DNA from: a virus
Lineage: Duplodnaviria; Caudoviricetes
DNA: 42,789 bases
IMG/VR virus record: IMGVR_UViG_3300017650_000015
Span: 1-42,789 of that record
Reading direction: 5' to 3' (one strand)
Below the pieces are notes generated by a model. The model worked only from the letters and a program-made list of their open reading frames with translations. It did not search any database and was not told the origin of the DNA. Position numbers and translations under genes: made by a program. Below are positions 182 through 42,708 of the stretch, piece after piece. Positions within the stretch are counted from its first letter, which is position 1. Each line of letters starts with the position of its first letter.

Positions 182-1309
182 CTAGTGGCTGGCGCCCTGT
201 CCTTCCGGCTGATGGCCGGCTTGTGGCACGTAAGCGGCCACAGGGGGCTGCGAATAGATGCGACCGTTTACATCTACCGTGCTGTGGATAGCAAGTTGAT
301 TTATGGCCGAGATCAGCGCGGTCGGGCTCAGGTGGATATACCGCATCGTCGTCGCGATCTGCGAGTGGCCGGCCAGCGCTTGGATGATCTGCACCGACAC
401 GCCCAGGTCGGCGAGGCGCGAGCAGAACTCATGGCGCAGGGCGTGCGGGATGAACTCAGGGTCCGCCGCGTGGCCCAGCCCGGTGCGCATCGAGCGCCAC
501 TTGGCGACGATCTGGACCGTGGTCAGGTCGGGGAACAGCAGGCCCTTAGGGTTCGCCTCGCGGCGCCGCTTGATGACGGCTGCGACCGCCGGGGTGACGG
601 GCACCGAGCGGTTGACCTTGCTCTTCGCCTTGACGCCGAAGACCTTGACATAGGTCGGGTCGCTGGTGGTCCCGTCGTCGAGGGCCAGCACCTCGCTCTG
701 GCGCAGCCCGGTACCGATGGAGATGCGGACGTAGTCGGCCATGTCCGCGTTCCCGGTCAGCTCGAAGTAGCCGATGATCTGGCGTTCCTCGTCGGGCGTG
801 ATGCGCCGGATGCGGCCCTCGCTCTCCTTGAACAGCCGGTGGCGCGGCGCCTTGTCGATGATCTCCAGCTCGACGGCTTCCTTCATCATCGTGTTGAAGG
901 CCGAGAGCTTGCGATTGATGGTCGCCGTTGCGGCCCCCTCTTCCCGCAGCGCCATCACCAGCCGGCCGACCTCCATCTTGCCCACGGCGCGGATGGGCGT
1001 CTCGCGGCCGAGGATGCGGACCACCGAGGTGGCGTTGATGGTCGCCGTCTTGGCCGACTTCTGCTGGTTCCAGCGGGTGCGCAGGGTCCAGTCGAGCAGC
1101 TCGCCCATGGTATAGGGCTTGCCCGAGGCGACCGAGGCTGCACGGGCGGATTGCTCCCCCATGTCGGGTAGATTGCCGCGTAGCAAAGCCGCCAGACTGT
1201 CGGCTTCCCACTGCTTCGCGGCCAGCTCGGTCGTGAACGAGCGGCGATACCGCGCGCCCTTGTGGCGGATGGAGGCTTGCCAAGAGGCGCCTCGTGGTGT
1301 CACAGACAT
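182..1309 (-). CDS. int: Tyrosine recombinase / phage integrase
   Basis: TGLRQSE, HALRH, LAGH and catalytic Tyr (TMRY) motifs; SD AAGGAG; adjacent to att. Confidence 0.96.
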   Translation of the reverse strand: MSVTPRGASWQASIRHKGARYRRSFTTELAAKQWEADSLAALLRGNLPDMGEQSARAASVASGKPYTMGELLDWTLRTRWNQQKSAKTATINATSVVRILGRETPIRAVGKMEVGRLVMALREEGAATATINRKLSAFNTMMKEAVELEIIDKAPRHRLFKESEGRIRRITPDEERQIIGYFELTGNADMADYVRISIGTGLRQSEVLALDDGTTSDPTYVKVFGVKAKSKVNRSVPVTPAVAAVIKRRREANPKGLLFPDLTTVQIVAKWRSMRTGLGHAADPEFIPHALRHEFCSRLADLGVSVQIIQALAGHSQIATTMRYIHLSPTALISAINQLAIHSTVDVNGRIYSQPPVAAYVPQAGHQPEGQGASH

Positions 1310-1336
1310 GCCGTTCTCCTTGAGTGAAGTCCCGCC

Positions 1337-1421
1337 GCCCGGCTGGCGAAACTGGTAGACGCACTTGGTTTAGGTCCAAGCGCCGCGAGGCGTGGGGGTT
1401 CAAGTCCCTCGCCGGGCACCA
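1337..1421 (+). tRNA. Phage-encoded tRNA-Leu(TAG), 85 nt with encoded CCA
   Basis: Acceptor GCCCGGC/GCCGGGC-A-CCA, D loop with TGGTA, anticodon arm CTTGG-TTTAGGT-CCAAG, long variable arm, T loop GTTCAAG. Confidence 0.95.
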
Positions 1422-1432
1422 CTATCCTCCGA

Positions 1433-1855
1433 TCAGCCTGCCGCCTTGTGGGCGCGGAAGGTCATCGAAGCGTGTTCCTTGGGGGTCGGGCTCTCGAAGC
1501 TCGTGATGATCTCGGTGGGCCGAACCGTCCGCAGGATGTCCCGCATCAGCGTCCGGCCCCGAGGGGTCAGAAACATGATCTTTCGGCGCCCTTCCTTCGG
1601 GTCCGGCACGGCCTCAACCAGTCCATAGCCCGGCTTCCCGAACCGATGCCACTCGCCGAGCGCCGCGACATTGCGCGAGCATGCTGACTGCGACAGGCCC
1701 GTCTGATCCGACAGCTCCTGCATCGTCAGCCCCGGATGGAGGGCCACACAGAGAAACGACTGCGCGACCTGAGTGGGCATCACGTCATCGATAGCGCGAA
1801 GGACACCGATCACCTTGATCAGCATGTCAATGTCCCTGCCGAAGTTCTCAGCCAT
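1433..1855 (-). CDS. MarR-type winged-helix transcriptional regulator, probable prophage repressor
   Basis: PGLTMQELSDQTGLSQSACSRNV HTH and D-x-x-x-G-RRK..LT..G wing; SD GGAG before ATG 1855; upstream of int. Confidence 0.85.
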   Translation of the reverse strand: MAENFGRDIDMLIKVIGVLRAIDDVMPTQVAQSFLCVALHPGLTMQELSDQTGLSQSACSRNVAALGEWHRFGKPGYGLVEAVPDPKEGRRKIMFLTPRGRTLMRDILRTVRPTEIITSFESPTPKEHASMTFRAHKAAG

Positions 1856-1941
1856 GATCGTCTCCAACGAAACTGGTCCCCAACGTCAGAGGCGTACCAT
1901 CGGGTTCACCTGAAATGCAACCCTTAGGTGGGCAGGACCGC

Positions 1942-2193
1942 TCAAAACAACGAGCTGATCCACCCGACAACGTCATCCGCGTTGGTCATGAAAGCCGTGG
2001 TCAGGCTCGCTAGAGCCCCGCACCACCGCGCGGTTCGCCTAAAGTCCAGCCGGGCGACGACGTGAAGCCGTCCGGCGAAGATCATCAATTCCCCTCGGCT
2101 CAACTCTGCGTCGAGCCATCGGTTCCCGCAAAGGGCGCTGGGAAACTCGGCGTAAACCTCGCCGACCGGAAGTCGAAGATACGTGGTGTGCAT
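1942..2193 (-). CDS. Hypothetical protein (83 aa) upstream of the repressor
   Basis: ORF fills the gap in the phage orientation; weak SD. Confidence 0.45.
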   Translation of the reverse strand: MHTTYLRLPVGEVYAEFPSALCGNRWLDAELSRGELMIFAGRLHVVARLDFRRTARWCGALASLTTAFMTNADDVVGWISSLF

Positions 2194-2236
2194 CTAGTGT
2201 CAGGGCCTCGTGCGCGGCCGGGGCCGGCGCTTTTTC

Positions 2237-2264
2237 GTGTTAGCAGGACAACCGCCTGCAGCAA
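2237..2264 (-). promoter_or_regulatory. Possible sigma70-type promoter for the repressor/integrase operon
   Basis: TTGCTG-N16-TAACAC (GCTAACA -10 style) in an AT-richer intergenic gap. Confidence 0.3.
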
Positions 2265-2323
2265 TCCCAAGTTCAAGATAACACACAACAAAATCTCGGT
2301 TCGAGGGATGCTCGGAGCGTCTA

Positions 2324-2734
2324 TCAGGAACCAAAACGCTCCGCGAGCAGGGAAGTGGGGTAAGCGTTGACCCAGCGGATGCCATTTTGACGCAGCCACG
2401 GGCACGCCTCAACTTTCACAACCTCAAGCTCACGCTCGCGCGCCCGGTGCTTGAGCCAGAAGCCGTCGCGTTTGGTCGCCTCAGGATCACGGTCGAGGAG
2501 GTCGAGGACGACCGGATCATGCTTCGCGAGGTAGCCGAGCACGGTGTCGAAGCCGGGCGGACAGGGCGACAGGAAGCGAATGTCCACGCGCGGCGGGCGG
2601 GTCGTCTCAGGCTGCTCTTCGATGGCCACCTCGCCGCCCATGGCTTCCATGAAAGCGAAGAGGCTCGCGGCCCCGAGGATCGTGTTGATGCGCTCCCCGT
2701 CAGGGAACTTCGCGGTGACGATGATCTTGCTCAT
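2324..2734 (-). CDS. Hypothetical protein (136 aa, MSKIIVTAKF...)
   Basis: ATGA overlap with the upstream ORF; SD GGAG. Confidence 0.7.
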   Translation of the reverse strand: MSKIIVTAKFPDGERINTILGAASLFAFMEAMGGEVAIEEQPETTRPPRVDIRFLSPCPPGFDTVLGYLAKHDPVVLDLLDRDPEATKRDGFWLKHRARERELEVVKVEACPWLRQNGIRWVNAYPTSLLAERFGS

Positions 2735-2847
2735 TTGGCGGGGGTCTCCGTGACGGTGAGGATCAGGCCGGTGAGCCGGTCCTGCCAGTAGGTGACGACG
2801 AAGCGCCGCCGGTATCGGGTGCGAACCTTGCGAAACTTGTTCGGCAT
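2731..2847 (-). CDS. Small basic protein (38 aa, MPNKFRKVRTRYRRRFVVTYWQDRLTGLILTVTETPAK)
   Basis: SD AGGGAG; coupled to the next gene; below the ORF-track cutoff. Confidence 0.6.
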   Translation of the reverse strand: MPNKFRKVRTRYRRRFVVTYWQDRLTGLILTVTETPAK

Positions 2848-2885
2848 GGCGTAATCTCCCTAGGACATAAATCCTATCTCGACGT

Positions 2886-2900
2886 GAACGGAAAGAGAAC
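2886..2900 (+). promoter_or_regulatory. Alphaproteobacterial LexA (SOS) box, GAAC-N7-GAAC
   Basis: GAAC-GGAAAGA-GAAC immediately before ATG 2901. Confidence 0.8.
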
Positions 2901-3131
2901 ATGCCCCCATTATCCACAGGCCATTCGGCCGCACCCGACCCCTTCCGAGCGCTCCGTCTGGAGCAATGTCAGGGGCGGGCGAGGTGCGTGAACTGCGGCC
3001 ATGTGGGGGCGCTGGACCTCTCGGCGCGTGATCCGAAGATGCCCGCCGTGGACCTCGAAAGGGCCTTGCGGTGCAGCTCGTGCGGCGAGAGGGGAACAAG
3101 CCTCCTGCTACGCAAGGAGGGCGGGCTTTGA
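2901..3131 (+). CDS. Zinc-ribbon protein (CxxC..CxxC, 76 aa), candidate SOS-induced antirepressor
   Basis: CVNC and CSSC pairs; the only convincing plus-strand CDS; preceded by a LexA box. Confidence 0.75.
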   Translation: MPPLSTGHSAAPDPFRALRLEQCQGRARCVNCGHVGALDLSARDPKMPAVDLERALRCSSCGERGTSLLLRKEGGL

Positions 3132-3192
3132 CCGCGACCATCGGGCAGTGGGGACTGCCCTAGGTTTCGCCCTAGGAGGGCTCGTCAGGCGG
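3132..3192 (-). ncRNA. Hammerhead ribozyme, type I; predicted cleavage after GUC between 3136 and 3135
   Basis: RNA: CCGC CUGACGA GCCCU-CCU-AGGGC GAAA CC-UA-GGGCAGU-CCCC-ACUGCCC-GAU-GG UC GCGG; full core and three stems. Confidence 0.9.
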
Positions 3193-3193
3193 A

Positions 3194-3370
3194 CTATCGA
3201 AGGCGGGCGAAGCAAGCCGCAGCCTCGCGCTCCATCTCGCGGACCTCGGCGAGGATCTTCTCGACCTCGTCATGGTCGATGTTCGGGTCATCCACGAAGG
3301 GGTCATAGCCGACCAGTTCGAGGAACTGGCGGGCCAGCTCGACGCGGCGTTCGGTGGGTTCAAAGGTCAT
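3194..3370 (-). CDS. Early hypothetical protein (58 aa, MTFEPTERR...)
   Basis: SD GAGGA; fits the early operon. Confidence 0.7.
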   Translation of the reverse strand: MTFEPTERRVELARQFLELVGYDPFVDDPNIDHDEVEKILAEVREMEREAAACFARLR

Positions 3371-3386
3371 TGGATGGTCCTCAGTT

Positions 3387-3698
3387 CTAGCGGATAGGCA
3401 GTGCCCACAGAGCGCCGAGGTGCGCGGCGATCTCATAGGCCCGCTCGCGGTCGCCGGCCGGGCCATCGGTGACGCATTCGAGCCCGAGCTGGGCGCTGTT
3501 GGCGTGGTAGTGGCCATAGACCGACCAGAACTGCGCCTCGGCGTCTGGCACCTGCTCGACGAACTCCCCGCCCTCCCCGTCAGGGAACAGCGCGCAGCCG
3601 TGGACCTCCAGCCAGTCCCAATCGGCCGCGAGGAGGATCGAGGGCTCAAGGCCCTCCTCGCAGCAGTTGAACAGCTCGGCTTCCGTGAACGTGGTCAT
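3387..3698 (-). CDS. Early acidic protein (103 aa, MTTFTEAELF...)
   Basis: SD AAGGA; about 19 D/E versus 3 R/K. Confidence 0.75.
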   Translation of the reverse strand: MTTFTEAELFNCCEEGLEPSILLAADWDWLEVHGCALFPDGEGGEFVEQVPDAEAQFWSVYGHYHANSAQLGLECVTDGPAGDRERAYEIAAHLGALWALPIR

Positions 3699-3862
3699 GG
3701 CGTGTCCTTCACTTCGATGGGCGTCAGGGTCCGCAGCGCGCGGAACGGATGGTCGCGGTAGAAGCGGCAAGCCGCCTCGAATGGGTGTGCGGCTTCGACG
3801 AGGCAGAAGCCCGAGCCCTGCCAGCGGGTGAGCCGGTAGTTGGCGAGGTAGACGACCGTCAT
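3695..3862 (-). CDS. Early hypothetical protein (55 aa, MTVVYLANY...)
   Basis: ATGA-type overlaps at both ends. Confidence 0.6.
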   Translation of the reverse strand: MTVVYLANYRLTRWQGSGFCLVEAAHPFEAACRFYRDHPFRALRTLTPIEVKDTP

Positions 3863-4296
3863 CGGGTCGCCCTCGCGCTCTCCTCGGCGGTCATGTCGCA
3901 AGGGTCGAACACGAGGATGCCGGGCAGGTACTTGGGGCCGCTGGTGTGCCCAAGGAACGCCATCTCGGCCTTCTCGACGGGCATCCGATGGGTGCCCATG
4001 ACGTGGACGAAAGTGCTGTCGAAGTCGGGATTGAACGAGACGGCCTTGCCGAGGCGCTGGCCGGCCCTGAGGTAGGCGGCATCGGCCTGCCCCCAGAGGT
4101 GATATTGCAGCCCCGTCCCGGTCTCGGTATCGACCGCTTCAAGGTCGCCGAGGAGGTACGGGCCGGCCTTCGTGATCACCAGCTTGACGTTGCGCAGCAG
4201 CACGCGCTCGGCGGTGCCGGTGAGCACGCGCTTGGTCCGGTCATCCTTGAGCGTCCAGCGCCGGACGCGGCTGTTCCAGTTGCAGCGAACGCGCAT
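3859..4296 (-). CDS. Early hypothetical protein (145 aa)
   Basis: SD GAGGGAG; coupled to neighbours. Confidence 0.75.
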   Translation of the reverse strand: MRVRCNWNSRVRRWTLKDDRTKRVLTGTAERVLLRNVKLVITKAGPYLLGDLEAVDTETGTGLQYHLWGQADAAYLRAGQRLGKAVSFNPDFDSTFVHVMGTHRMPVEKAEMAFLGHTSGPKYLPGILVFDPCDMTAEESARATR

Positions 4297-4511
4297 CAGA
4301 AGAACTCCCTCAGGTCAAAGCGGGGATTGCGATAGCCGGCGACAAAGTCCGGCTCGGCGCCCTCGAACTGCCATCCGATCTCCCTCGGCATGGCGTAGAG
4401 CTGGTGCGCCACGTCGCCGAGGTGGCGGGCAAACTGGCGCTGGTTGGCGACCTCGAACGGGCCGAAGGTGCGCTGCGAGAGAGGGTCGAAGAAGGTGACG
4501 CGAGGGGCCAT
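4296..4511 (-). CDS. Early hypothetical protein (71 aa, MAPRVTFFDP...)
   Basis: TGATG coupling; SD GGAGG. Confidence 0.7.
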   Translation of the reverse strand: MAPRVTFFDPLSQRTFGPFEVANQRQFARHLGDVAHQLYAMPREIGWQFEGAEPDFVAGYRNPRFDLREFF

Positions 4512-4921
4512 CAGCGGGCGCCCTCCTCGATCAGCAGGACCGAGCGGATGAGCTTGCGGCGTCCCCAAAACGCATGGATCGGCTTCGGCCCGAGCTGGTC
4601 CAGCACGACACCGTCACGGACCATCTGCACATGGCCGGTGGTCCAGACGTAGTAGAGGCGACCGGGCTCGGCGCGGCGCCGCACGAACGACACCAGCGTC
4701 TCGCGGAACAGGAAGTTGATGGGCCGGAAGCGGACGCCGAACCAGCGGAGAGCCGCCAGCCGCTCATTGTGCGTGGTGCGGCCCTTCCAGTTGCCGCGCT
4801 TGCCGGCCGACATGACGCGCCATGCGTCCTCGAACGGGCAACCAGCGGCGACCGCGACCGCAGTCACGCCGCAGTTAGGGCCGGGCCGAGCGCCGGCAGG
4901 CAGGGCGAAACCCTCGCTCAT
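4511..4921 (-). CDS. Early protein with a possible papain-like Cys/His motif (NCGVTAVA...GHV)
   Basis: Cys at the start of a hydrophobic helix with a downstream His; SD GGGAGG; function is a guess. Confidence 0.65.
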   Translation of the reverse strand: MSEGFALPAGARPGPNCGVTAVAVAAGCPFEDAWRVMSAGKRGNWKGRTTHNERLAALRWFGVRFRPINFLFRETLVSFVRRRAEPGRLYYVWTTGHVQMVRDGVVLDQLGPKPIHAFWGRRKLIRSVLLIEEGAR

Positions 4922-5115
4922 CGCGCGCCCTCCCCTGCCACGATCACCACCTTGCAGCGCCAGCCGGCCAGCATACGGGCGATCTTGACCGCCTCTTTGC
5001 GGCCTGCAGCGTCCCGAGTGATCACGATGGGCTTCCCGAGCCAGCCGGGCGCATCGTCGAACGTCGCGATTTGCCAGCGCTTCGGGGCCAGCTTGGAGAC
5101 CTGATAGACGCGCAT
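4918..5115 (-). CDS. Early hypothetical protein (65 aa)
   Basis: SD AAGGGAG; coupled overlaps. Confidence 0.7.
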   Translation of the reverse strand: MRVYQVSKLAPKRWQIATFDDAPGWLGKPIVITRDAAGRKEAVKIARMLAGWRCKVVIVAGEGAR

Positions 5116-5183
5116 CAGCGGGCTCCCTTGCGGGCCGCAGGCGGCAGGTCCAGAGGGTGCGTGTCGTCGAAACCGTCGATCAT
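5115..5183 (-). CDS. Possible 22-aa mini-ORF (MIDGFDDTHPLDLPPAARKGAR) just downstream of the type II hammerhead
   Basis: SD GGGAGAG; TGATG coupling to the next gene. Confidence 0.4.
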   Translation of the reverse strand: MIDGFDDTHPLDLPPAARKGAR

Positions 5184-5210
5184 CGGGGCTCTCCCGTTCG
5201 TGTCGCTGAC

Positions 5211-5275
5211 AGGCTCGTCAGGCGGCGCCTCACGCCGCGACCATCGGGCAGACGGTGCTGCCCTAGGTTTCGCCT
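5211..5275 (-). ncRNA. Hammerhead ribozyme, type II; predicted cleavage after GUC between 5239 and 5238
   Basis: RNA: AGGC GAAA CC-UA-GGGCAG-CACCGU-CUGCCC-GAU-GG UC GCGGCG-UGAGG-CGCCGC CUGACGA GCCU. Confidence 0.92.
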
Positions 5276-5296
5276 TGCATTCTTGGGGTGCATAGA

Positions 5297-6109
5297 TCAG
5301 TCGACGACAAACCCTGAGGTGTCGCGCTTGGCGTTGCCCTTGGCGTAGAGGCCGACCACCACGCCCTTGGGATCGAGGAACCGAAGGTCCGTTTCGTCGC
5401 CGTTGACCACCTCAGCGACGACATAGTCGCCAGCCGCTGCCAGAGCGAAGCCGTTCGCCTCATAGAAGGCGACCGTTGCCTTATCGCGGAACACAACCGC
5501 CACGTTGAGGCCGTTGCGGAAGGCCTTCACAGCCTGTTCACGGTTGCCATCGGCCAGACTGAAAACCACGGTATAGTTGGCCGGCAGACCCTTGCGGTTC
5601 GGCAGCTTGGTATAGTCATAGAACCGGACGTCGCCGAAGTGCTCGAAGAGGTTGGCCGATCCTTCCGGCTTGCTGGACCAAGTGCCAGCCATGGCCGGAA
5701 CCTTGACGGCTTCCCAGCGGATATCTGAGGTGCCGTTGAGGCGGAATACAGGCTCCAAACCGGCCTTGCGAGCCAGCCGAACGGCCGTTTCCATCTCACG
5801 GACCAGAGCGAAAAGGAACGTCTCGCGGCTCTCAAAGAACCATTTCGTCTTGCGGATGCGGGCCGCTTGGATCGTGTTGACCTTGCCAGCCTTGACGTCC
5901 TCAACGGTCAGACGGGCAACGCCCTTCATCATGCCGCCGCGCCCTGCCGTGTTCAGGCAAGCCGCCTCACAGCCGGCAGTCGCCATCGGGCAGACGTTGA
6001 AGCCCGAGAGCTTGGCAGGCGCCAGATGCAGGATGAAGGTCCAGTAGCCAGCGCCCCGCCCCTTCTCAGTCTTGGGATTGCCGGGCGTCAGGATCTTGAA
6101 ACGTGCCAT
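5297..6109 (-). CDS. GP88-like phage protein (Cys-rich, possibly Fe-S / radical-SAM-related)
   Basis: CPMATAGCEAAC cluster and RLNGTSDI and FYDYTK motifs recalled from the GP88 family; SD AGGAG. Confidence 0.75.
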   Translation of the reverse strand: MARFKILTPGNPKTEKGRGAGYWTFILHLAPAKLSGFNVCPMATAGCEAACLNTAGRGGMMKGVARLTVEDVKAGKVNTIQAARIRKTKWFFESRETFLFALVREMETAVRLARKAGLEPVFRLNGTSDIRWEAVKVPAMAGTWSSKPEGSANLFEHFGDVRFYDYTKLPNRKGLPANYTVVFSLADGNREQAVKAFRNGLNVAVVFRDKATVAFYEANGFALAAAGDYVVAEVVNGDETDLRFLDPKGVVVGLYAKGNAKRDTSGFVVD

Positions 6110-6199
6110 AGTGAGTTGCTCCTACAGGGTGCATAGATGAAGGCAAAGTGAGCCTGTGAAGAGCCGCCAGACGGTGCCCGCCAGCGGCCAATCAGAGGA

Positions 6200-6397
6200 T
6201 CAATACCCGAGTTCGCGGTTGAGCTTGGCGGCGCTATAGGCTCGCCGCTGAGGGTTCCAGCAGGCGGCTTTCGCTTCCGCCATGCCATCGTCATGAGGGC
6301 CGAAGCCGTGGAACTCACAGACCCGATGGAACTGGTCCTCAGTGAGCCAAGGCGGCGTTCCGACCATGCCGCAGACGCTGTCCAGATCGTCGCTCAT
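6200..6397 (-). CDS. Early hypothetical protein (65 aa, MSDDLDSV...)
   Basis: ATG 2 nt after the upstream stop. Confidence 0.6.
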   Translation of the reverse strand: MSDDLDSVCGMVGTPPWLTEDQFHRVCEFHGFGPHDDGMAEAKAACWNPQRRAYSAAKLNRELGY

Positions 6398-6399
6398 GG

Positions 6400-6570
6400 T
6401 CAGAAGTTCCACGGCTTGGCGCCGCGCACCTTGCAGACCGCCGAGGCTTCCCGCTTACCGGAAACCGTGATCTTCTCGCCAGCCTCGAAGGTCGGGCCGT
6501 TGCAGGGCGCCGCGACCAGCGTCAACGTCCAGACCTTGCCGGACGCCTTGTGCAGATATGCAACCATCAT
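6400..6570 (-). CDS. First early gene (56 aa, MMVAYLHKASGKVW...KPWNF)
   Basis: SD AAGGGAG overlapping hammerhead stem III; absent from the ORF track. Confidence 0.7.
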   Translation of the reverse strand: MMVAYLHKASGKVWTLTLVAAPCNGPTFEAGEKITVSGKREASAVCKVRGAKPWNF

Positions 6571-6575
6571 TCACT

Positions 6576-6631
6576 CCCTTGTTTCGCCCTTACTGGGGCT
6601 CATCAGGCCGGCAACTAGCCGACGACAAGGG
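6576..6631 (-). ncRNA. Hammerhead ribozyme, type III; predicted cleavage after GUC between 6624 and 6623
   Basis: RNA: CCCUUG UC GUCGGC-UAGUU-GCCGGC CUGAUGA GCCC-CAGUAA-GGGC GAAA CAAGGG; canonical core with all stems paired. Confidence 0.95.
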
Positions 6632-6638
6632 TTCACGA

Positions 6639-6650
6639 TTTCAAAGAGCG
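6639..6650 (-). promoter_or_regulatory. boxA-like antitermination element
   Basis: CGCTCTTTGAAA in the early leader after GC-rich hairpins; resembles rrn/nut boxA. Confidence 0.65.
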
Positions 6651-6726
6651 CGCCGGGCCGCTTCCCGCCGAAGGCCACCGTTGAGGGGCGGTGCCGGTTG
6701 GCCGTCCGTCCGTCTGGTGTGATTGA

Positions 6727-6756
6727 GTTATAACCCTAGGGTGAATTGTAACGCAA
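6727..6756 (-). promoter_or_regulatory. Major early host sigma70 promoter with a palindromic operator-like site in the spacer
   Basis: TTGCGT-N18-TATAAC, upstream A/T tracts, ACCCTAGGGT palindrome between the hexamers. Confidence 0.8.
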
Positions 6757-6924
6757 GCGGAAAAATGCATCCCTGCATTCTTTTTTTCAAAGCCTAGGGT
6801 TTCTGCGGGTTTGCGACTGCCCGCTAGGGCGGCTCGGCTCACGAAAAGCCATAGGGACGCCGCAAGCGCCTCGCCCTGGCAGCACGCTTCCGCGCCTAGC
6901 CTGCCCGTCTCGCGCGCCCTGGCG

Positions 6925-7120
6925 GCGTCCCTAGCGTGGTCCTATCGTGGCACCTTGCCTCGCCCCTCGCGTGACCCGCTCGCCTCGCCCCTTGCGTGGT
7001 CCGCTTGTGGCGTCCCTCGTGGCGCCTCGCCTCGCCCCTCGCGTGGTCCGCTCGCCTCGCCCCTCGCGTGGTCCGCCTGTGGCGCCTTGCGTGGTCCGCC
7101 TGTGGCACCTTGCGTGGTGC
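6925..7120. repeat. Degenerate short-repeat array near the probable virion genome end
   Basis: GCGTGGTCCG-like cores at 6934, 6969, 6994, 7041, 7066, 7089 and 7112, with CCTCGCCCCT or GTGGCRCCTT linkers. Confidence 0.85.
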
Positions 7121-7625
7121 AAAAGGGACAGTGACAGGGGCGGACGCATGGACGTTACAACATAACACCAGCCGCCCTTCACCTCGCCTCATATCCCGCG
7201 CATTGGCCACCATTGGCGCCGCTAGTGGATGCGGCATCCATTCGGAAACGGCAGGATTGAGCCATTCCGAGGCCCTTGTGGCCACGTTCAGTGGCTCGCC
7301 ACTATAAGGAACGGGTACTCTAGTATGGCGCGGGGTGGCCGGCCGGTCGGCGGTGGGGGGTACCGGGGGGATCGCGCTTCGTCTCTTATCGAGGCCACCA
7401 CACGGATTTTTCCGGCAAAACAAAACGGCCCCTAGGCACCACCTCAGGAACCCGCTCAGGGGCTGCAGAGGAGGCCGTGGGGCCGATATAGGTGCTCGCA
7501 TAGGCTAACCCACCGGGAGCGATGGGCTGGCCTCTAAGGGCACTGGAGCTGGTTGGAGGGGCCTTGCCTTTTAGCGAGGGCTGGCGACAGCCAGGCCGAG
7601 ATAAAAGGCGGGCGCGGCGGGCGCG

Positions 7626-7739
7626 TCAGTCCGGCATATACGGGGCACCGGGGAACCCGCCAGACCACACCCCGACCACGATGACGATCAGAGCGACGAG
7701 GGCGAGGAGGGCATAGCCGATGAAGGAGTCCTTGGTCAT
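7626..7739 (-). CDS. Small membrane protein (37 aa, MTKDSFIGYALLALVALIVIVVGVWSGG...), at the T7 gene 19.5 position
   Basis: SD AGGA; one hydrophobic segment; downstream of a phage promoter. Confidence 0.6.
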   Translation of the reverse strand: MTKDSFIGYALLALVALIVIVVGVWSGGFPGAPYMPD

Positions 7740-7774
7740 GGTGTCCTACTTAAGTGGTTCGTATAGTTCTCACC

Positions 7775-7817
7775 GAGGGGGAATGGGGATGACAATCACC
7801 CCCATCCCCATCCCCTC
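7775..7817. repeat. Inverted repeat downstream of the post-terminase phage promoter
   Basis: ATGGGGATG/CATCCCCAT 9-bp stem plus an outer GAGGGG/CCCCTC. Confidence 0.6.
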
Positions 7818-7838
7818 CTCCACCTATACTCCACTCTC

Positions 7839-7855
7839 CTGGGGTGGGGGGTAAT
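7839..7855 (-). promoter_or_regulatory. Phage RNAP promoter (phiOR-like position); variant copy at 7864-7880
   Basis: ATTACCCCCCACCCCAG followed by GAGAG; recurrent intergenic 17-mer. Confidence 0.8.
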
Positions 7856-7890
7856 TGATGGTCTATCAGTGGGGGGTAATCCCCAACTGA

Positions 7891-9573
7891 TCACACCTCC
7901 ATCCAGAGGTCTCCCGCACCTTGCGGTCCCGTGAACTGCTCGCAGAAGCGACGGAGGTCTGCATCTCGCATGGCCTCATAGTGCTCCGCAGCGGCGCTCT
8001 GGGTGTCCTTCGCCATGTGCTCGGTCCAGTAGCCCACGGCCATGGCCAAGGCGTCCAGACGGTCGTCGTGGCGCAGCGCTCCGCGTTCCCGCGTGAGGCG
8101 GCTGAACTGGTAGAAGAGCTGGTAGTCGCGCTCGCTCTCGGCGTCCACCTTGATGACCGAAGCGTCCACCACGAGGCGGTGAGCTTGGATGACGGGCTCG
8201 AGAACGTCGGCGATGCGGCGCTCCTTCTGGCCCATGCTCTTCTCCTCCTCGACCGTGCAAGGGTAGACCTTGGCGAGGACCGGCTTGAGGAGCTGGGTGA
8301 ACATGCCGTCACCGAAGTTGGCCTCGACGCGGATATGGTTGGCGCCGTGGATCTTCGCGAGCATGGCGAGGCTCTTGAGGGTGCCCTCCGAGTAGCCCTC
8401 TCGGAAGCCGCCAGCGGCCACGAGGAAGAGGTTGCCGTGGAGGATCTTCACGATGGCATAGGCGGTCTCGTCCTTGCCGCGACCCGAGGGATCGATGGCC
8501 ATGACGCAGCCGGTGAAGGGCGCGAGGGCCTTCTCGCCGGTCGCCTGCCACAGCGGGCGGTAATAGCGGTCGCCCGCGAGGCCCACGTTCGGCAGCTCCT
8601 GGATGATCTTGTCGGGGTCGTTGCACCACGCGAGCTGGGTCGGGCCGAGGCGCCGGTCGAGCGACGTCACCATCAGGTCGGCGAGGCGCAGCGGGAAGCG
8701 GTCAGCGTCGGTGAGCGACGTGTCCAGCATGAACTGGAGCATGAAGCCGGCGCTGGCGTACTCGCTCTCCTTGTCCGCGAGGACCAGCTCGTTGAACCGA
8801 GGGGAGACCGGAGTGCCCGGCTTGGCGCCCCTCTCGATCATGTCGAGGATGAACGGGGCGAGCTGCCCTCGGTACTTCTCGACGTTCTCGGGGATGCGGG
8901 CCGGCCAGATGCGGACGGTATAGCCGCGCCCCGGCAGCTCGTTGTAGATCGACATCTCGGACTGTGGCGTGCCGAGGTAGGTGATATAGCCGCTCTCGGG
9001 CTTCACGACGGCCGAGAACTCCTTGATCAGTTCGAGGAGCTTCTCGCGGCTCTGGTGCGTGGCCGAGTTGTTGGTGGTCTCGATGTCGTCGGCGATGATC
9101 TCGTCGGCGCGGGAGCCGGTGATCTGGCCGGTGATGCCGACCGACTTCACGCTCGGGTCTTTCGAGGTCCGCGCGGGGCCGAAGTCGAACATGATCACGC
9201 TGTCCTTCTGGCCCTCTCGGGGGCGTAGATGCTGGAGCAGCGGCATCTCGTCGATGAGCTTCTTGACGAACATCGCGAGGCTGTCGGCAGCGGCCTTCGA
9301 GGCCGACACGACCATCATCTTCCAGTCGGGATTGGTGAGGCCCCGCCAGCAGACGAAGGCGCCATAGATCCACGACTTGCCGACCCCTCGGAAGGCCATG
9401 ATCATCTTCTTGACCGGGCCGTGCTGGAGGAAGTGGGCGATGTCGTACTGCTCGGGCGTCGGGTCCGGCAGGCCGAGGTGCTTCCACACGAGGTAGAGGA
9501 AGTTGCGGAAGTCGCTGAGGATGGGGTCTTTCGCCTCGCTGGTGAGCGCGGTCGAGGACAGGAGTTCGGTCAT
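7891..9573 (-). CDS. terL: Terminase large subunit (T7 gp19-like)
   Basis: AFRGVGKS Walker A, GQITGSRADEIIADD, IDPSGRGKDET, HDDRLDAL. Confidence 0.98.
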   Translation of the reverse strand: MTELLSSTALTSEAKDPILSDFRNFLYLVWKHLGLPDPTPEQYDIAHFLQHGPVKKMIMAFRGVGKSWIYGAFVCWRGLTNPDWKMMVVSASKAAADSLAMFVKKLIDEMPLLQHLRPREGQKDSVIMFDFGPARTSKDPSVKSVGITGQITGSRADEIIADDIETTNNSATHQSREKLLELIKEFSAVVKPESGYITYLGTPQSEMSIYNELPGRGYTVRIWPARIPENVEKYRGQLAPFILDMIERGAKPGTPVSPRFNELVLADKESEYASAGFMLQFMLDTSLTDADRFPLRLADLMVTSLDRRLGPTQLAWCNDPDKIIQELPNVGLAGDRYYRPLWQATGEKALAPFTGCVMAIDPSGRGKDETAYAIVKILHGNLFLVAAGGFREGYSEGTLKSLAMLAKIHGANHIRVEANFGDGMFTQLLKPVLAKVYPCTVEEEKSMGQKERRIADVLEPVIQAHRLVVDASVIKVDAESERDYQLFYQFSRLTRERGALRHDDRLDALAMAVGYWTEHMAKDTQSAAAEHYEAMRDADLRRFCEQFTGPQGAGDLWMEV

Positions 9574-17066: not shown

Positions 17067-19742
17067 TCAGTCGGGCCAGACGTCCTTGCCGATGCCGGCA
17101 CGGCGCAGCCCCTTCGTCACGACATCACGGCTGATGCCGCGTTCGAGGGACTTGATGGCCTCGCTGATCAGGGACTTCTTGCCATCGGTCAGCGCGCCTT
17201 GGAGCTGGTTGGCGGTCTCGTCGCCCTTCGGTGCGGACTTGGCCTTGCGCTCTTGGATCGCGTCTCGCATGGGGGCGATGGCGCCCTCCACGGCCACGGC
17301 AGCATTCGCGCCGGCCCCGACGAGTGTGTCGGTGAGCTTCTGCGTCCGCTCCTTGGCGCCGAGCTGGTCCTTCTGGTACTTCTGGCGGCGCCCCTCACGG
17401 AGCTGTTCCTGCACTGCAGGGTCACGCCAGTTCTTCGGGAGGAACGGCCCGAGGTGGAGGTCCACGGGGCCATCAGGGTTCCCGAGCTGGAACCACGGCT
17501 GGTATGCGGTGTCGGCCGCGTTCTTCGCGTCCTCGGCCTTCATCCGGTTGATCTCGTTGATGCGGTTCTGTTCTGCCGTCATGAGGTCGTCCGAGGTGAA
17601 GGTACCATCCGCGATCTGGTCCACAGAGGCGCCCGTCGTCTTGCTGACGATGCGCCATGCGTTGCCGCCATCACCGACCGTGCGGATGGTCAGGTCTTCG
17701 ACATCGACGCCTTCGGACTTGCCGTGCTTCTCGACGTATTCCCGGATGATCTCGGTCGAGAGGTCAGGGAAGTTCGGCGGGAGCCGCTTGTCGCTGGCGT
17801 CCACCCACCAGCCGTTGATGTTGACGTGGGTGAGCTTCACCTGCTCAGCGGCCTGCGTGATCGCCGTGTCGGCGTCGAGGCCACGCTTGGCGAGCTGTTC
17901 GGCCCGAACGGCAACCGCGTCCGTCAGCATCGAGGCATTGAGGTTGTCGATGCCCTGCCCGAAGACGCTCTTGAAGGTGTTGAGGAACCCGCCGTCCGTG
18001 GCCTTCTTGCGGACCTTGTCCACGCTGACCATCGCGGCACGGACGCCACGCCCTGTCGGGTCGGCGTTCTGGTCCACGGCGTCCATCAGCGCCTTCTGCG
18101 GGTCGAGGCCCATCAGCTCCTCACCGACCCGCCACGTCTCGAACAGCTCGGCCTTGTCCTGAGGGACGATGTCGCGGAGCATCTGGGACTTGTTGGTGCG
18201 GAGCAGCTTGTAGAGGGCATAAGCCCGCTGCGCCGGCTCGGGGATCTCGGAGCCGGTCATCATCGCCGCCGAGAGGGAGTTGGCGCCACCACGCATGGTG
18301 TCGATCCAGTCCTTCGGGGGCGAGCCGATCTTCGCGTAGACGGGCAAGTCGCGCAGGACCGTCTGGTCCCACGTCTCGTTGTTCGCCTTGGCGGCAGCGG
18401 CTGACTGGATGGCATAGTCGTCGAGGGCGCGCTTGCGCATGTCCTCGGCCGAGAGGGTCTTCTCGTTGCCCTCCTTGTCGATTACGACGGCCGGCTGCAG
18501 GCTGAACAGCTTGCCCGACTTCACGGCTTCGATGCCCGTGTTCCTGATCGTCGCTTCCTGATTGTGGAACTGCACGTCGAGCTGCTGCTGCTGAGCGGCC
18601 TTGGCGGCGGCGTTCTGCAGTCGCGCCCGCTCGTTGCGGCTCTGCTGGATGCGGCTCTCGACCCAGCTCTCAGGGTAGGCGCCGGGCTCGGTCTTGACCT
18701 TCTCGCGAAGGGCCACCTCATCCTCGGGCGTCAGCTCGCCCTTGTCGGCGCGGTCATAGATCGTCTGGCGCGCACTGACGGTGGCTTCCTGGCTCTTGTC
18801 GTCCCGGATCGCCTTGGCGCGGAGGACGGCCTTGGCCATGTCGCCGCCGACCTGAGTGTCGTCGAGGAGCTTGCCGAGCTTGGCGCCGTCAGGCCCCGTC
18901 CGGTCCATCGTCGCGAGCGCCGAGACGAGGTCATAGTTGCCCTCTTCGGCCAGCGTCGCGGCGAGCTGAACAGCCGCCTTTCCTTGGTCCTGAAAGGACA
19001 TGCCGAGGAGGCGCTTGTTGCCATAGAACTCCCCGAAGATGGCCTTGGCCTGCTCCTCGGGCGAGGCCCCCGCAGCGGCGCCGTTACGGGCCACCGAGAG
19101 GAAGGCGTCCTGCAGCGTCTGCTGGTTGGCGGAATACTGCTCCTGCGCCTTGTAGCCGGTATAGCCGGCCCTGAGCTGGCGCAGAGAGGGGTCGATGGAG
19201 GCCATGAACGACTTGACGTAGGACGGGTCGTTGGCCCGGTCGCCGAGGTAGGGCTTGACCTTCTCGGCCACGAAGGCGTCGAAGTCGCCGCTCGCCTTGT
19301 CGAAGTCGTTGACGTAGGCATTTTGGATGTCGGAGAGCGCGAGGGTCGCGTTCTGCATGCCCGAGACGCGCTGAGCGGCGGCGCGGCCGAGTTCGGTCTT
19401 GGTGCGCGGGTCCGTCTCGACGAACTTCGCATAGTCCTCGGGGCTCAGCTCGATCTGCTTGGCCCGCAGGAGGGCCTCGACGGTATCCTCTTCCTTGGCC
19501 CGCTGAACGGAGCCGAAGCGCTGGAGCGCGGGGTTCAGGGCCGCGAGGCCATCAGCCAGCCCGTCGAGCACGGGGTCGCGCTGAGGCTGGGCCGGGCGGC
19601 TATAGGTCTCGACGGGGGACGCTGCCGGACGGAGGCCCGGCGCTTGGATGCGGACCTCCTGCTGAGGGACGCCCTGCTTGATGCGATTGCCCGGCTGCGG
19701 GCGGTCTTCGGAGATCGGCGTGAGGCCGGGAATGCGTGCCAT
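17067..19742 (-). CDS. Internal virion protein, gp15-like
   Basis: 891-aa helical Ala/Gln-rich protein in syntenic position. Confidence 0.8.
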   Translation of the reverse strand: MARIPGLTPISEDRPQPGNRIKQGVPQQEVRIQAPGLRPAASPVETYSRPAQPQRDPVLDGLADGLAALNPALQRFGSVQRAKEEDTVEALLRAKQIELSPEDYAKFVETDPRTKTELGRAAAQRVSGMQNATLALSDIQNAYVNDFDKASGDFDAFVAEKVKPYLGDRANDPSYVKSFMASIDPSLRQLRAGYTGYKAQEQYSANQQTLQDAFLSVARNGAAAGASPEEQAKAIFGEFYGNKRLLGMSFQDQGKAAVQLAATLAEEGNYDLVSALATMDRTGPDGAKLGKLLDDTQVGGDMAKAVLRAKAIRDDKSQEATVSARQTIYDRADKGELTPEDEVALREKVKTEPGAYPESWVESRIQQSRNERARLQNAAAKAAQQQQLDVQFHNQEATIRNTGIEAVKSGKLFSLQPAVVIDKEGNEKTLSAEDMRKRALDDYAIQSAAAAKANNETWDQTVLRDLPVYAKIGSPPKDWIDTMRGGANSLSAAMMTGSEIPEPAQRAYALYKLLRTNKSQMLRDIVPQDKAELFETWRVGEELMGLDPQKALMDAVDQNADPTGRGVRAAMVSVDKVRKKATDGGFLNTFKSVFGQGIDNLNASMLTDAVAVRAEQLAKRGLDADTAITQAAEQVKLTHVNINGWWVDASDKRLPPNFPDLSTEIIREYVEKHGKSEGVDVEDLTIRTVGDGGNAWRIVSKTTGASVDQIADGTFTSDDLMTAEQNRINEINRMKAEDAKNAADTAYQPWFQLGNPDGPVDLHLGPFLPKNWRDPAVQEQLREGRRQKYQKDQLGAKERTQKLTDTLVGAGANAAVAVEGAIAPMRDAIQERKAKSAPKGDETANQLQGALTDGKKSLISEAIKSLERGISRDVVTKGLRRAGIGKDVWPD

Positions 19743-42666: not shown

Positions 42667-42682
42667 GGAACCTAAATCCAGC
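42667..42682. repeat. Right att core (16 bp)
   Basis: Identical to 108-123. Confidence 0.95.
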
Positions 42683-42708
42683 GTGTCTACCAATTCCACC
42701 ACGCCCGC
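42667..42708 (-). pseudogene. 5' part of the disrupted host tRNA-Leu(TAG)
   Basis: GCGGGCGTGGTGGAATTGGTAGACACGCTGGATTTAGGTTCC, then phage sequence without T arm or acceptor complement; joined to 65-107 it gives a complete 85-nt tRNA. Confidence 0.93.

Follow-up and report, generated by a model that had tools for sequence, protein, structure and literature searches.

The window, the whole 42,789-nucleotide stretch of viral DNA analysed here, is a T7-like prophage read on the minus strand, as judged from PHROG matches (Table 1). By RNA polymerase, the closest cultured phages are Rhizobium phages TRX32-1, RHEph01 and RHEph21 and Pseudomonas phage LUZ100, at 49-53% identity. A 16-base core is common to both ends of the window (108 and 42667) and lies inside two halves of a tRNA-Leu-like sequence, the pattern expected of attL and attR. 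The host tRNA-Leu(TAG) is apparently split by the prophage at the anticodon arm, without restoration (65-123, 42667-42706). The prophage has a complete tRNA-Leu of its own beside the integrase, and many relatives have a tRNA at the same place. This tRNA could replace the broken host tRNA, as in other phages. The alternative is the one taken for the LUZ100 tRNA by its authors, who regard it as an excision remnant (PMC10134795). At gathering level, tRNA was the one Rfam match in the whole window; weak matches to mir-483, snoRNAs, SECIS and MIAT were rejected as chance.

Table 1. Features of the prophage and of the leader of its first early gene
Feature	Position	Strand	Remarks
RNA polymerase	42127-39503	minus	PHROG match
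Large terminase	9573-7891	minus	PHROG match
Putative host promoter	-35 6756-6751, -10 6732-6727; start near 6720	minus	promoter-like pair
boxA-like site	6632..6649	minus	ends directly at hammerhead 1
Predicted 5-bp helix extension	6639-6635 with 6570-6566	minus	covers ATG 6570 and two bases of ATG 6567
Hammerhead 1, type III	6631-6576	minus	complete motif; stems I/II/III 6/4/7 bp
Stem III 5' strand (anti-SD)	6631-6625	minus	on 5' cleavage product
Cleavage base C17	6624	minus	predicted cut 3' of C6624
Stem I	6623-6618/6612-6607	minus	6 bp, loop 6617-6613
Core	6606-6600	minus	hammerhead 1
Stem II	6599-6596/6589-6586	minus	4 bp, loop 6595-6590
GAAA	6585-6582	minus	hammerhead 1 core
Stem III 3' strand	6582-6576	minus	7 bp
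Core SD of first gene	6579-6574	minus	best core pairing; 6579-6576 is the end of the stem III 3' strand
First early gene	6400..6567	minus	probably 55 aa from ATG 6567 (56 aa from 6570)
Hammerhead 2, type II	5275-5211	minus	predicted cut 3' of 5239; just after 270-aa phrog_1617 gene
Hammerhead 3, type I	3192-3132	minus	predicted cut 3' of 3136
MarR-like regulator	1855-1433	minus	PHROG match
Complete tRNA-Leu	1337-1421	plus	between MarR-like regulator and integrase
Integrase	1309-182	minus	PHROG match

An array of short imperfect repeats (12-72 bases) at 6919-7120, between the terminase and the early promoter, resembles the repeats near the T7 genome ends and likely marks the end of this genome. 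Small genes run from 6570 down to the integrase, and the early region is closed by the MarR-like regulator, tRNA-Leu and integrase (182..1855). With the likely genome end at 6919-7120, the open reading frame at 6570 is fairly called the first early gene, as the initial annotation had it; the genome is T7-like, and at its left end no other gene comes between this one and a promoter-like site. Its product is a small phage protein of phrog_20574 (E 1.4e-7), a family with no assigned function, and its homologues are 41-67% identical; all protein atlas matches to it were under 0.9. The reading frame, described at first as encoding 56 amino acids from 6570, is a member of a real gene family. Its start codon is probably the second ATG at 6567, since the database gene call has 55 amino acids and almost all of the short homologues begin to align at residue 2 or beyond. 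Four of the six bases of the core Shine-Dalgarno (SD) sequence lie inside stem III of the hammerhead. For the SD as first delimited (6580-6574) the overlap with the 3' strand of stem III holds for five of seven bases, and for the longer pairing with alphaproteobacterial 16S tails (6580-6571) for five of ten. Masking of the SD by stem III is partial.

Host RNA polymerase would start near 6720. A strict sigma-70 scan of 6000-8000 passed no promoter, and the 24-base segment that starts at the -10 box (6732-6709) is found again in Agrobacterium phage Atu_ph02, before its small left-end genes. The equivalent region of LUZ100 is transcribed from host promoters (PMC10134795). Between the promoter and hammerhead 1 lies a boxA-like site, with 14/18 and 11/18 identity to motifs in the 16S-23S spacer and the 16S leader of two alphaproteobacterial rRNA operons (G006 and G007), where the label boxA is a reading from the position of the motifs. 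The G005 stretches, from the third of three alphaproteobacterial genomes examined, gave no clear match, and an 18-base boxA pattern with one mismatch allowed found no rrn site. The boxA-like site heads the early region in relatives. It is not a general companion of type III hammerheads: it accompanies 3 of 154, and a control window gives 1 of 154. BoxA is described as binding NusB-S10 and giving read-through in antitermination (PMC10250234). By its sequence, the site is a candidate rrn-type antitermination signal shortly after the promoter. Recurrent 6-base half-sites are also present in the early region (6746-6727, 6574-6569, 6134, 5293, 2917 and 2193). One overlaps the promoter spacer within a near-palindrome, and the promoter spacers of relatives have similar sites; the half-sites are possible operators of the MarR-like protein.

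The type III hammerhead that had been proposed ahead of the first gene is confirmed. The motif agrees with the published consensus (C3 U4 G5 A6 N7 G8 A9, G12 A13 A14, an A15.1-U16.1 pair and H17; PMC3088659), stems I and II are closed, stem III is open and all are paired beside the core. It is also the lowest-energy structure predicted for 6631-6574 (-26.2 kcal/mol, z -3.36, 0 of 200 shuffles), and no full hammerhead with stems of 4/4/4 bp arose in 300 dinucleotide shuffles of the window. Rfam model RF00008 gave 24.7 bits (E 0.0016 in a 141-base search), below the gathering score of 48.5. At gathering level Rfam also misses the type I and III hammerheads of relatives, so the low score reflects the reach of the model. 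Loop 1 has a 5' U and a penultimate pyrimidine, which matches U-Nm-Y-N at a short m (2). Loop 2 has a 3' A and a C:A opposition, and its first base is C rather than a purine, as in the Schistosoma loop. A U-Nm-Y-N loop 1 together with a loop 2 ending in A has been linked to fast natural hammerheads (PMC2632901). Three DNA runs were compared, of which X3 does not cover the ribozyme and X1 may derive from the source of this DNA; no variants occur in the ribozyme. Hammerhead 1 likely self-cleaves.

The early region contains two further hammerheads that had been overlooked. The three represent three topologies (III, II and I) and lie on one strand between early genes. Hammerheads 2 and 3 have in common a 40-base bulged stem III segment that is 90% identical (5235-5274 and 3132-3171). 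Their active folds were predicted at 0.92 and 0.98 in narrow folding windows and at 0.04 and 0.00-0.09 with more flank; for hammerhead 2, a competing hairpin is predicted to form once 5210-5200 is transcribed. No SD with a long open reading frame was called directly behind either ribozyme. Behind hammerhead 2 lies a 22-codon open reading frame with a GGAG-type site (5183-5115), whose stop codon overlaps the beginning of the gene that follows. Cutting at all three predicted sites would release RNAs of about 97, 1385 and 2103 bases and leave the rest of the transcript. The bulged stem III of hammerheads 2 and 3 recurs in RHEph01, TRX32-1, L259, L269, L275, L277, L332 and L336, in type I and type II topologies, and the shared sequence suggests that a single ancestral module was permuted. 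The second early gene is immediately followed by a long, GC-rich hairpin that has internal loops (6200-6140), a place where a fourth processing signal could lie.

The arrangement at hammerhead 1 raises the question of whether cleavage affects translation of the first gene. As the initial annotation stated, the partner of the SD is on the 5' cleavage product, and cutting is therefore predicted to free the ribosome-binding site. The predicted cost of opening the SD is 6.8-7.9 kcal/mol in the precursor and 1.8-3.6 kcal/mol in the free 3' product. For the segment from the SD to the start codon, the predicted cost falls from 9.3 kcal/mol before the cut to 3.2 after it, a drop of 6.2 kcal/mol; across other folding windows it falls from 4.5-9.7 to 2.6-3.3 kcal/mol. 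A predicted drop of 4-6 kcal/mol holds over most construct lengths and is smaller in two of eight precursor windows. All the predicted masking strands, namely stem III, 6639-6635 and the boxA-like site, are on the 5' product. The 6639-6635 extension is within chance, as 12 of 100 shuffled leaders mask as strongly. Eleven other starts in the early region, which have no directly overlapping ribozyme, are predicted to cost 3.4-12.5 kcal/mol to open, so translation need not be blocked by a mask in the predicted range of 7-10 kcal/mol. The predicted 3' product also keeps two hairpins upstream of the SD.

The order of folding and release bears on the same question. Stem III has a predicted probability of 0.90-1.00 for transcripts ending at 6574-6555, and the active fold is predicted to dominate over the first 20 bases after the ribozyme is complete. 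A competing helix, formed by the boxA-like site and the SD, has a probability of 0.03-0.85, varying with the 3' end of the folded RNA; in longer folds, stem III is at 0.37 for 6720-6540 and at 0.86 with the 3' end at 6500. The 7-bp stem III helix is worth -9.3 to -11.1 kcal/mol. Strands of a helix associate at 1e7-1e8 per M per min, and in the uncut ribozyme tertiary contacts would further stabilise stem III. From the helix energy and this association rate, a rough half-life for leader release is 1.5 s to about 5 min, with 0.15 per min at the slow end. A delay would be compatible with this rough estimate.

Whether the overlap is conserved was addressed with positional orthologues, a survey of phage hammerheads and homologues of the first gene. 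Hammerheads upstream of the integrase on the same strand occur in 11 of 87 related loci, many of the others being short or having more distant integrases, and in two of seven cultured phage regions. A type III ribozyme comes first in RHEph01, prophages L252, L259 and L335, and L639, a complete phage with a related RNA polymerase. The SD lies outside stem III in all five, with gaps of 139 (RHEph01), 6 (L252), 14 (L259), 8 (L335) and 43 bases (L639). The five represent about three independent ribozyme sequences, all distant. In the four orthologues computed, the predicted drop on cleavage is -2.7, 0.0, 0.4 and 3.2 kcal/mol, the last being L335, where it comes from upstream pairing. The closest integrases are P0002 (72%) and P0003-P0005 (57-58%). 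The best integrase match with DNA compared is about 42% identical, a depth that places compensatory change within the lineage outside the reach of the comparison. Among 79 metagenome integrase loci there was one type II hammerhead and no close relative, and a single-protein search with the integrase in viral contigs gave no match. L712 is apparently the record of the window itself.

The survey combined four pattern scans that left the SD unspecified with the orthologue loci. About 120 matches were listed per scan of an estimated 380-8400, and three of the four scans fixed the first stem III pair, so that GUA triplets and one pair type are undersampled. A first pattern scan had forced GGAG after the core, and its 121 loci are excluded from all counts. 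The non-redundant motifs collected number at least 155 of type III, 110 of type I and 23 of type II. An SD with an open reading frame could be called for 94 of the 155 type III motifs, among the matches listed, the sample to which all the following counts and tests apply. No SD base is in stem III in 86 of the 94, at least three are in six, and the median gap is 9 bases; with a stricter SD call, 82 of 87 leave the SD free of stem III. In type I and type II hammerheads the SD is unpaired in the open stem in 62 of 64 and 13 of 13, respectively. The predicted drop has a median of 0.64 kcal/mol over 93 type III cases and reaches 5 kcal/mol or more in three. The drop of the window exceeds that of all 93 comparators, the largest of which is 5.6 kcal/mol. 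These 93 leaders mask less than shuffled ones (p 0.007, with related sequences counted as independent). An SD that begins no more than 6 bases from the core does not go with a longer stem III (5.7 against 5.9 bp). A test for masking beyond stem III was negative for the survey set, and such masking is within chance for the window. In the type III phage hammerheads L528, L488, L542, L576 and L608, stem III contains 3-6 of the SD bases, and all six are paired in L528.

Homologues of the first gene gave a similar picture. Among 32 viral loci that contain a homologue, not one shows a hammerhead just ahead of the gene, and six have a type II hammerhead 600-1100 bases downstream. Three annotated phage regions also have no hammerhead directly upstream. 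By these three tests (orthologues, survey and gene homologues), selection for the overlap is not general. Masking of the SD is the exception, in about 6 in 100 type III phage hammerheads among the matches listed, and cutting just upstream of an open site is the rule. That related phages lack the overlap makes an RNA-processing signal more likely than a dedicated switch.

The reading to which we give somewhat better than an even chance is that hammerhead 1 is a constitutive self-cutting signal that removes the leader of the early mRNA, and that the overlap is specific to this lineage and imposes a predicted order of cutting, then translation. After initiation, host RNA polymerase would pass the boxA-like site, and the ribozyme is predicted to fold once transcription reaches 6576, when the start codon has yet to be made. 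The cut after 6624 would give a leader of about 97 bases that carries the boxA-like site and an mRNA with a 5'-hydroxyl that begins with two hairpins. The leader would then drop off the 7-bp helix, and the SD and start codon would open. The purpose common to the relatives would be the cut itself, in the place and job of T7 RNase III site R0.3 and its successors. The SD overlap would be a local compaction that gives a one-way order and not a regulated switch. There is no linker between ribozyme and SD, and gene 1 is therefore predicted to be translated only once the cut has been made; such an order follows from the layout and is not in itself evidence of regulation. The intact core and stems, the three topologies on one strand and the open SDs of all five orthologues count in favor of processing. 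Counting against it are the drop of the window, which tops all comparators among the matches listed, as selection for masking would give, the rival helix between the boxA-like site and the SD, and the loss of the predicted active fold of hammerheads 2 and 3 in wider context.

The initial annotation had gone further and proposed a natural cleavage-activated translation switch or timer. The part of that proposal that stands is that the site is predicted to be closed before the cut and mostly open after it. Conservation speaks against the rest (0 of 5 orthologues, 6 of 94 type III cases among the matches listed and 0 of 32 gene homologues), a switch would have no evident ligand or protein input, and the other two ribozymes of the operon overlap no SD. 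It is unlikely that stem III and the start-codon helix evolved to hold gene 1 off until cutting and release, as a delay or as a coupling to a condition such as the loading of an antitermination complex on boxA. Such selection would account for the largest predicted unmasking of 94 cases among the matches listed, for the location of each masking strand on the 5' product and for the recurrence of the layout in unrelated phages such as L528; release could need minutes at the slow end of the estimate, and engineered SD-masking ribozymes activate 5- to 100-fold in the constructs described (PMC5052635). It fits poorly with the orthologues, in which the overlap is absent and the drop is 3.2 kcal/mol in L335 and 0.4, 0.0 and -2.7 in the three others. 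It also fits poorly with the low median drop of the type III set and its weaker masking than shuffled leaders (kinship ignored), with the lack of longer stems at near-core SDs, both among the matches listed, with an extra start-codon helix that is within chance, and with the presence of the gene elsewhere without a ribozyme. No aptamer or other RNA family is nearby: a search of the whole window at gathering level found no riboswitch, nor did one of 5000-8000 with E values up to 5. The boxA:SD helix is no more than a candidate for an input. A more elaborate form of the device is improbable. Here stem III would hold gene 1 off until cleavage and release of the boxA-bearing leader, as a built-in delay, and NusB-S10 on the boxA-like site would remove the boxA:SD helix, so that only antitermination-loaded transcripts would cut and translate gene 1.

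The overlap may also have no effect on translation. In that case the ribosome would use the unpaired half of the extended SD and open the 7-bp helix, cut and uncut RNA would be translated alike, and the ribozyme would matter only for RNA ends or stability. Half of the extended SD is indeed outside stem III, opening is predicted to cost 3.4-12.5 kcal/mol at the 11 other early-region starts, and a twister P1 design that leaves structure upstream of the SD, as would be the case here, gave only 5-fold activation (PMC5052635). The predicted drop is, however, steady over most construct lengths, and the tertiary contacts of an uncut ribozyme would firm up stem III, which leaves the absence of any effect rather unlikely. 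Very improbable is a motif that is inactive or mostly misfolded in the real transcript, with the leader as a fixed translational damper. The boxA:SD helix does displace stem III in some long folds, as in 6720-6540, and the Rfam score is below gathering, but Rfam at that level missed the type III and I hammerheads of relatives too. The core bases are all intact, the loop sequences fit the tertiary motif, the active fold is predicted to dominate just after completion, and comparable prophage hammerheads are active (PMC3088659).

Similar systems are known. The prophage of A. tumefaciens C58 has a triple hammerhead cluster before MarR, tRNA and integrase that is active in vitro and in E. coli, and processing of a long transcript was proposed (Perreault 2011, PMC3088659). 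The window is like it in having three hammerheads between small genes before the same three features, and differs in that no ArdA was recognised among the 17 proteins scanned. The cluster of the window belongs to this published kind, in which more than one hammerhead lies on the coding strand among small genes close to an integrase, and it has an uncommon SD overlap; neither 'Shine' nor 'ribosome binding' occurs in the main text of that paper. RHEph01 (L245, 662-712), prophages L252, L259 and L335 and phage L639/G002 are like the window in topology, in the position of the ribozyme as the first of the early region and in its location downstream of a boxA-like site. They differ in a stem III of 3-5 bp and an SD 6-139 bases further on. 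In the early RNA of T7, RNase III cuts five sites, and the optimal translation of some mRNAs is stated to need cutting (PMC4858673, PMC3276506). As with the T7 sites from R0.3 onward, the predicted cuts separate genes of an early polycistron transcribed by the host polymerase, and the first of them falls after the promoter and ahead of gene 1. Hammerhead self-cleavage, in contrast, needs no host enzyme and leaves a 5'-hydroxyl and a cyclic phosphate, and the analogy is one of function only.

Two other systems can be compared. Engineered switches free a stem-held SD by self-cleavage, as the initial annotation stated, and precedents are described in PMC5052635, where engineered twister constructs gave 5-fold activation with structure left upstream of the SD and about 100-fold without. 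Like the Wieland and Hartig hammerhead cited there and the twister P1 and P3 designs, the window has an SD in a ribozyme stem and a partner strand that leaves with the 5' product. Those designs mask the whole SD and carry an aptamer, whereas the window pairs four of six core bases, has no evident sensor and leaves two hairpins upstream of the SD. HHphage of haloviruses HF1/HF2 is a hammerhead 13 bases before the first open reading frame of an early polycistron, with a mapped 5' end near the cut (PMC3088659). It shares with the window the position a few bases before the first early open reading frame and differs in its variant core, archaeal host and proposed salt dependence, the core of the window being canonical. 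No natural phage hammerhead masking an SD was found in the literature searched, which was mostly outside subscription journals.

The role of phage and prokaryotic hammerheads has been called open (PMC6155905, PMC6765202). The locus offers a clean test of that role, having the strongest predicted SD masking of 94 type III cases among the matches listed, and the orthologous leaders without the overlap, including that of RHEph01, a cultured phage, are natural controls. If gating is true, the leader would be a natural counterpart of the engineered switch. L528, with all its SD bases paired, would serve well as a second case for such a test.

In other relatives the boxA-like site is retained and different hairpins lie behind it. 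In L246 (5563-5680), L275 (7050-7160) and L277 (7243-7350), a conserved pair of long hairpins with internal loops follows the site in place of the type III hammerhead; it has no Rfam match at gathering level, and the hairpins are candidates for RNase III sites or for a processing element of some other sort. In L332 (753-870) and L336 (5989-6110) the site is followed by a conserved hairpin of a second type, with a common closing stem and also not in Rfam at gathering level. In an unrelated 72-kb phage, L480 (G001, 19680-19733), a boxA-like site lies directly before a type III hammerhead whose stem III holds three bases of a weak SD, which makes this phage the nearest analogue of the leader of the window.
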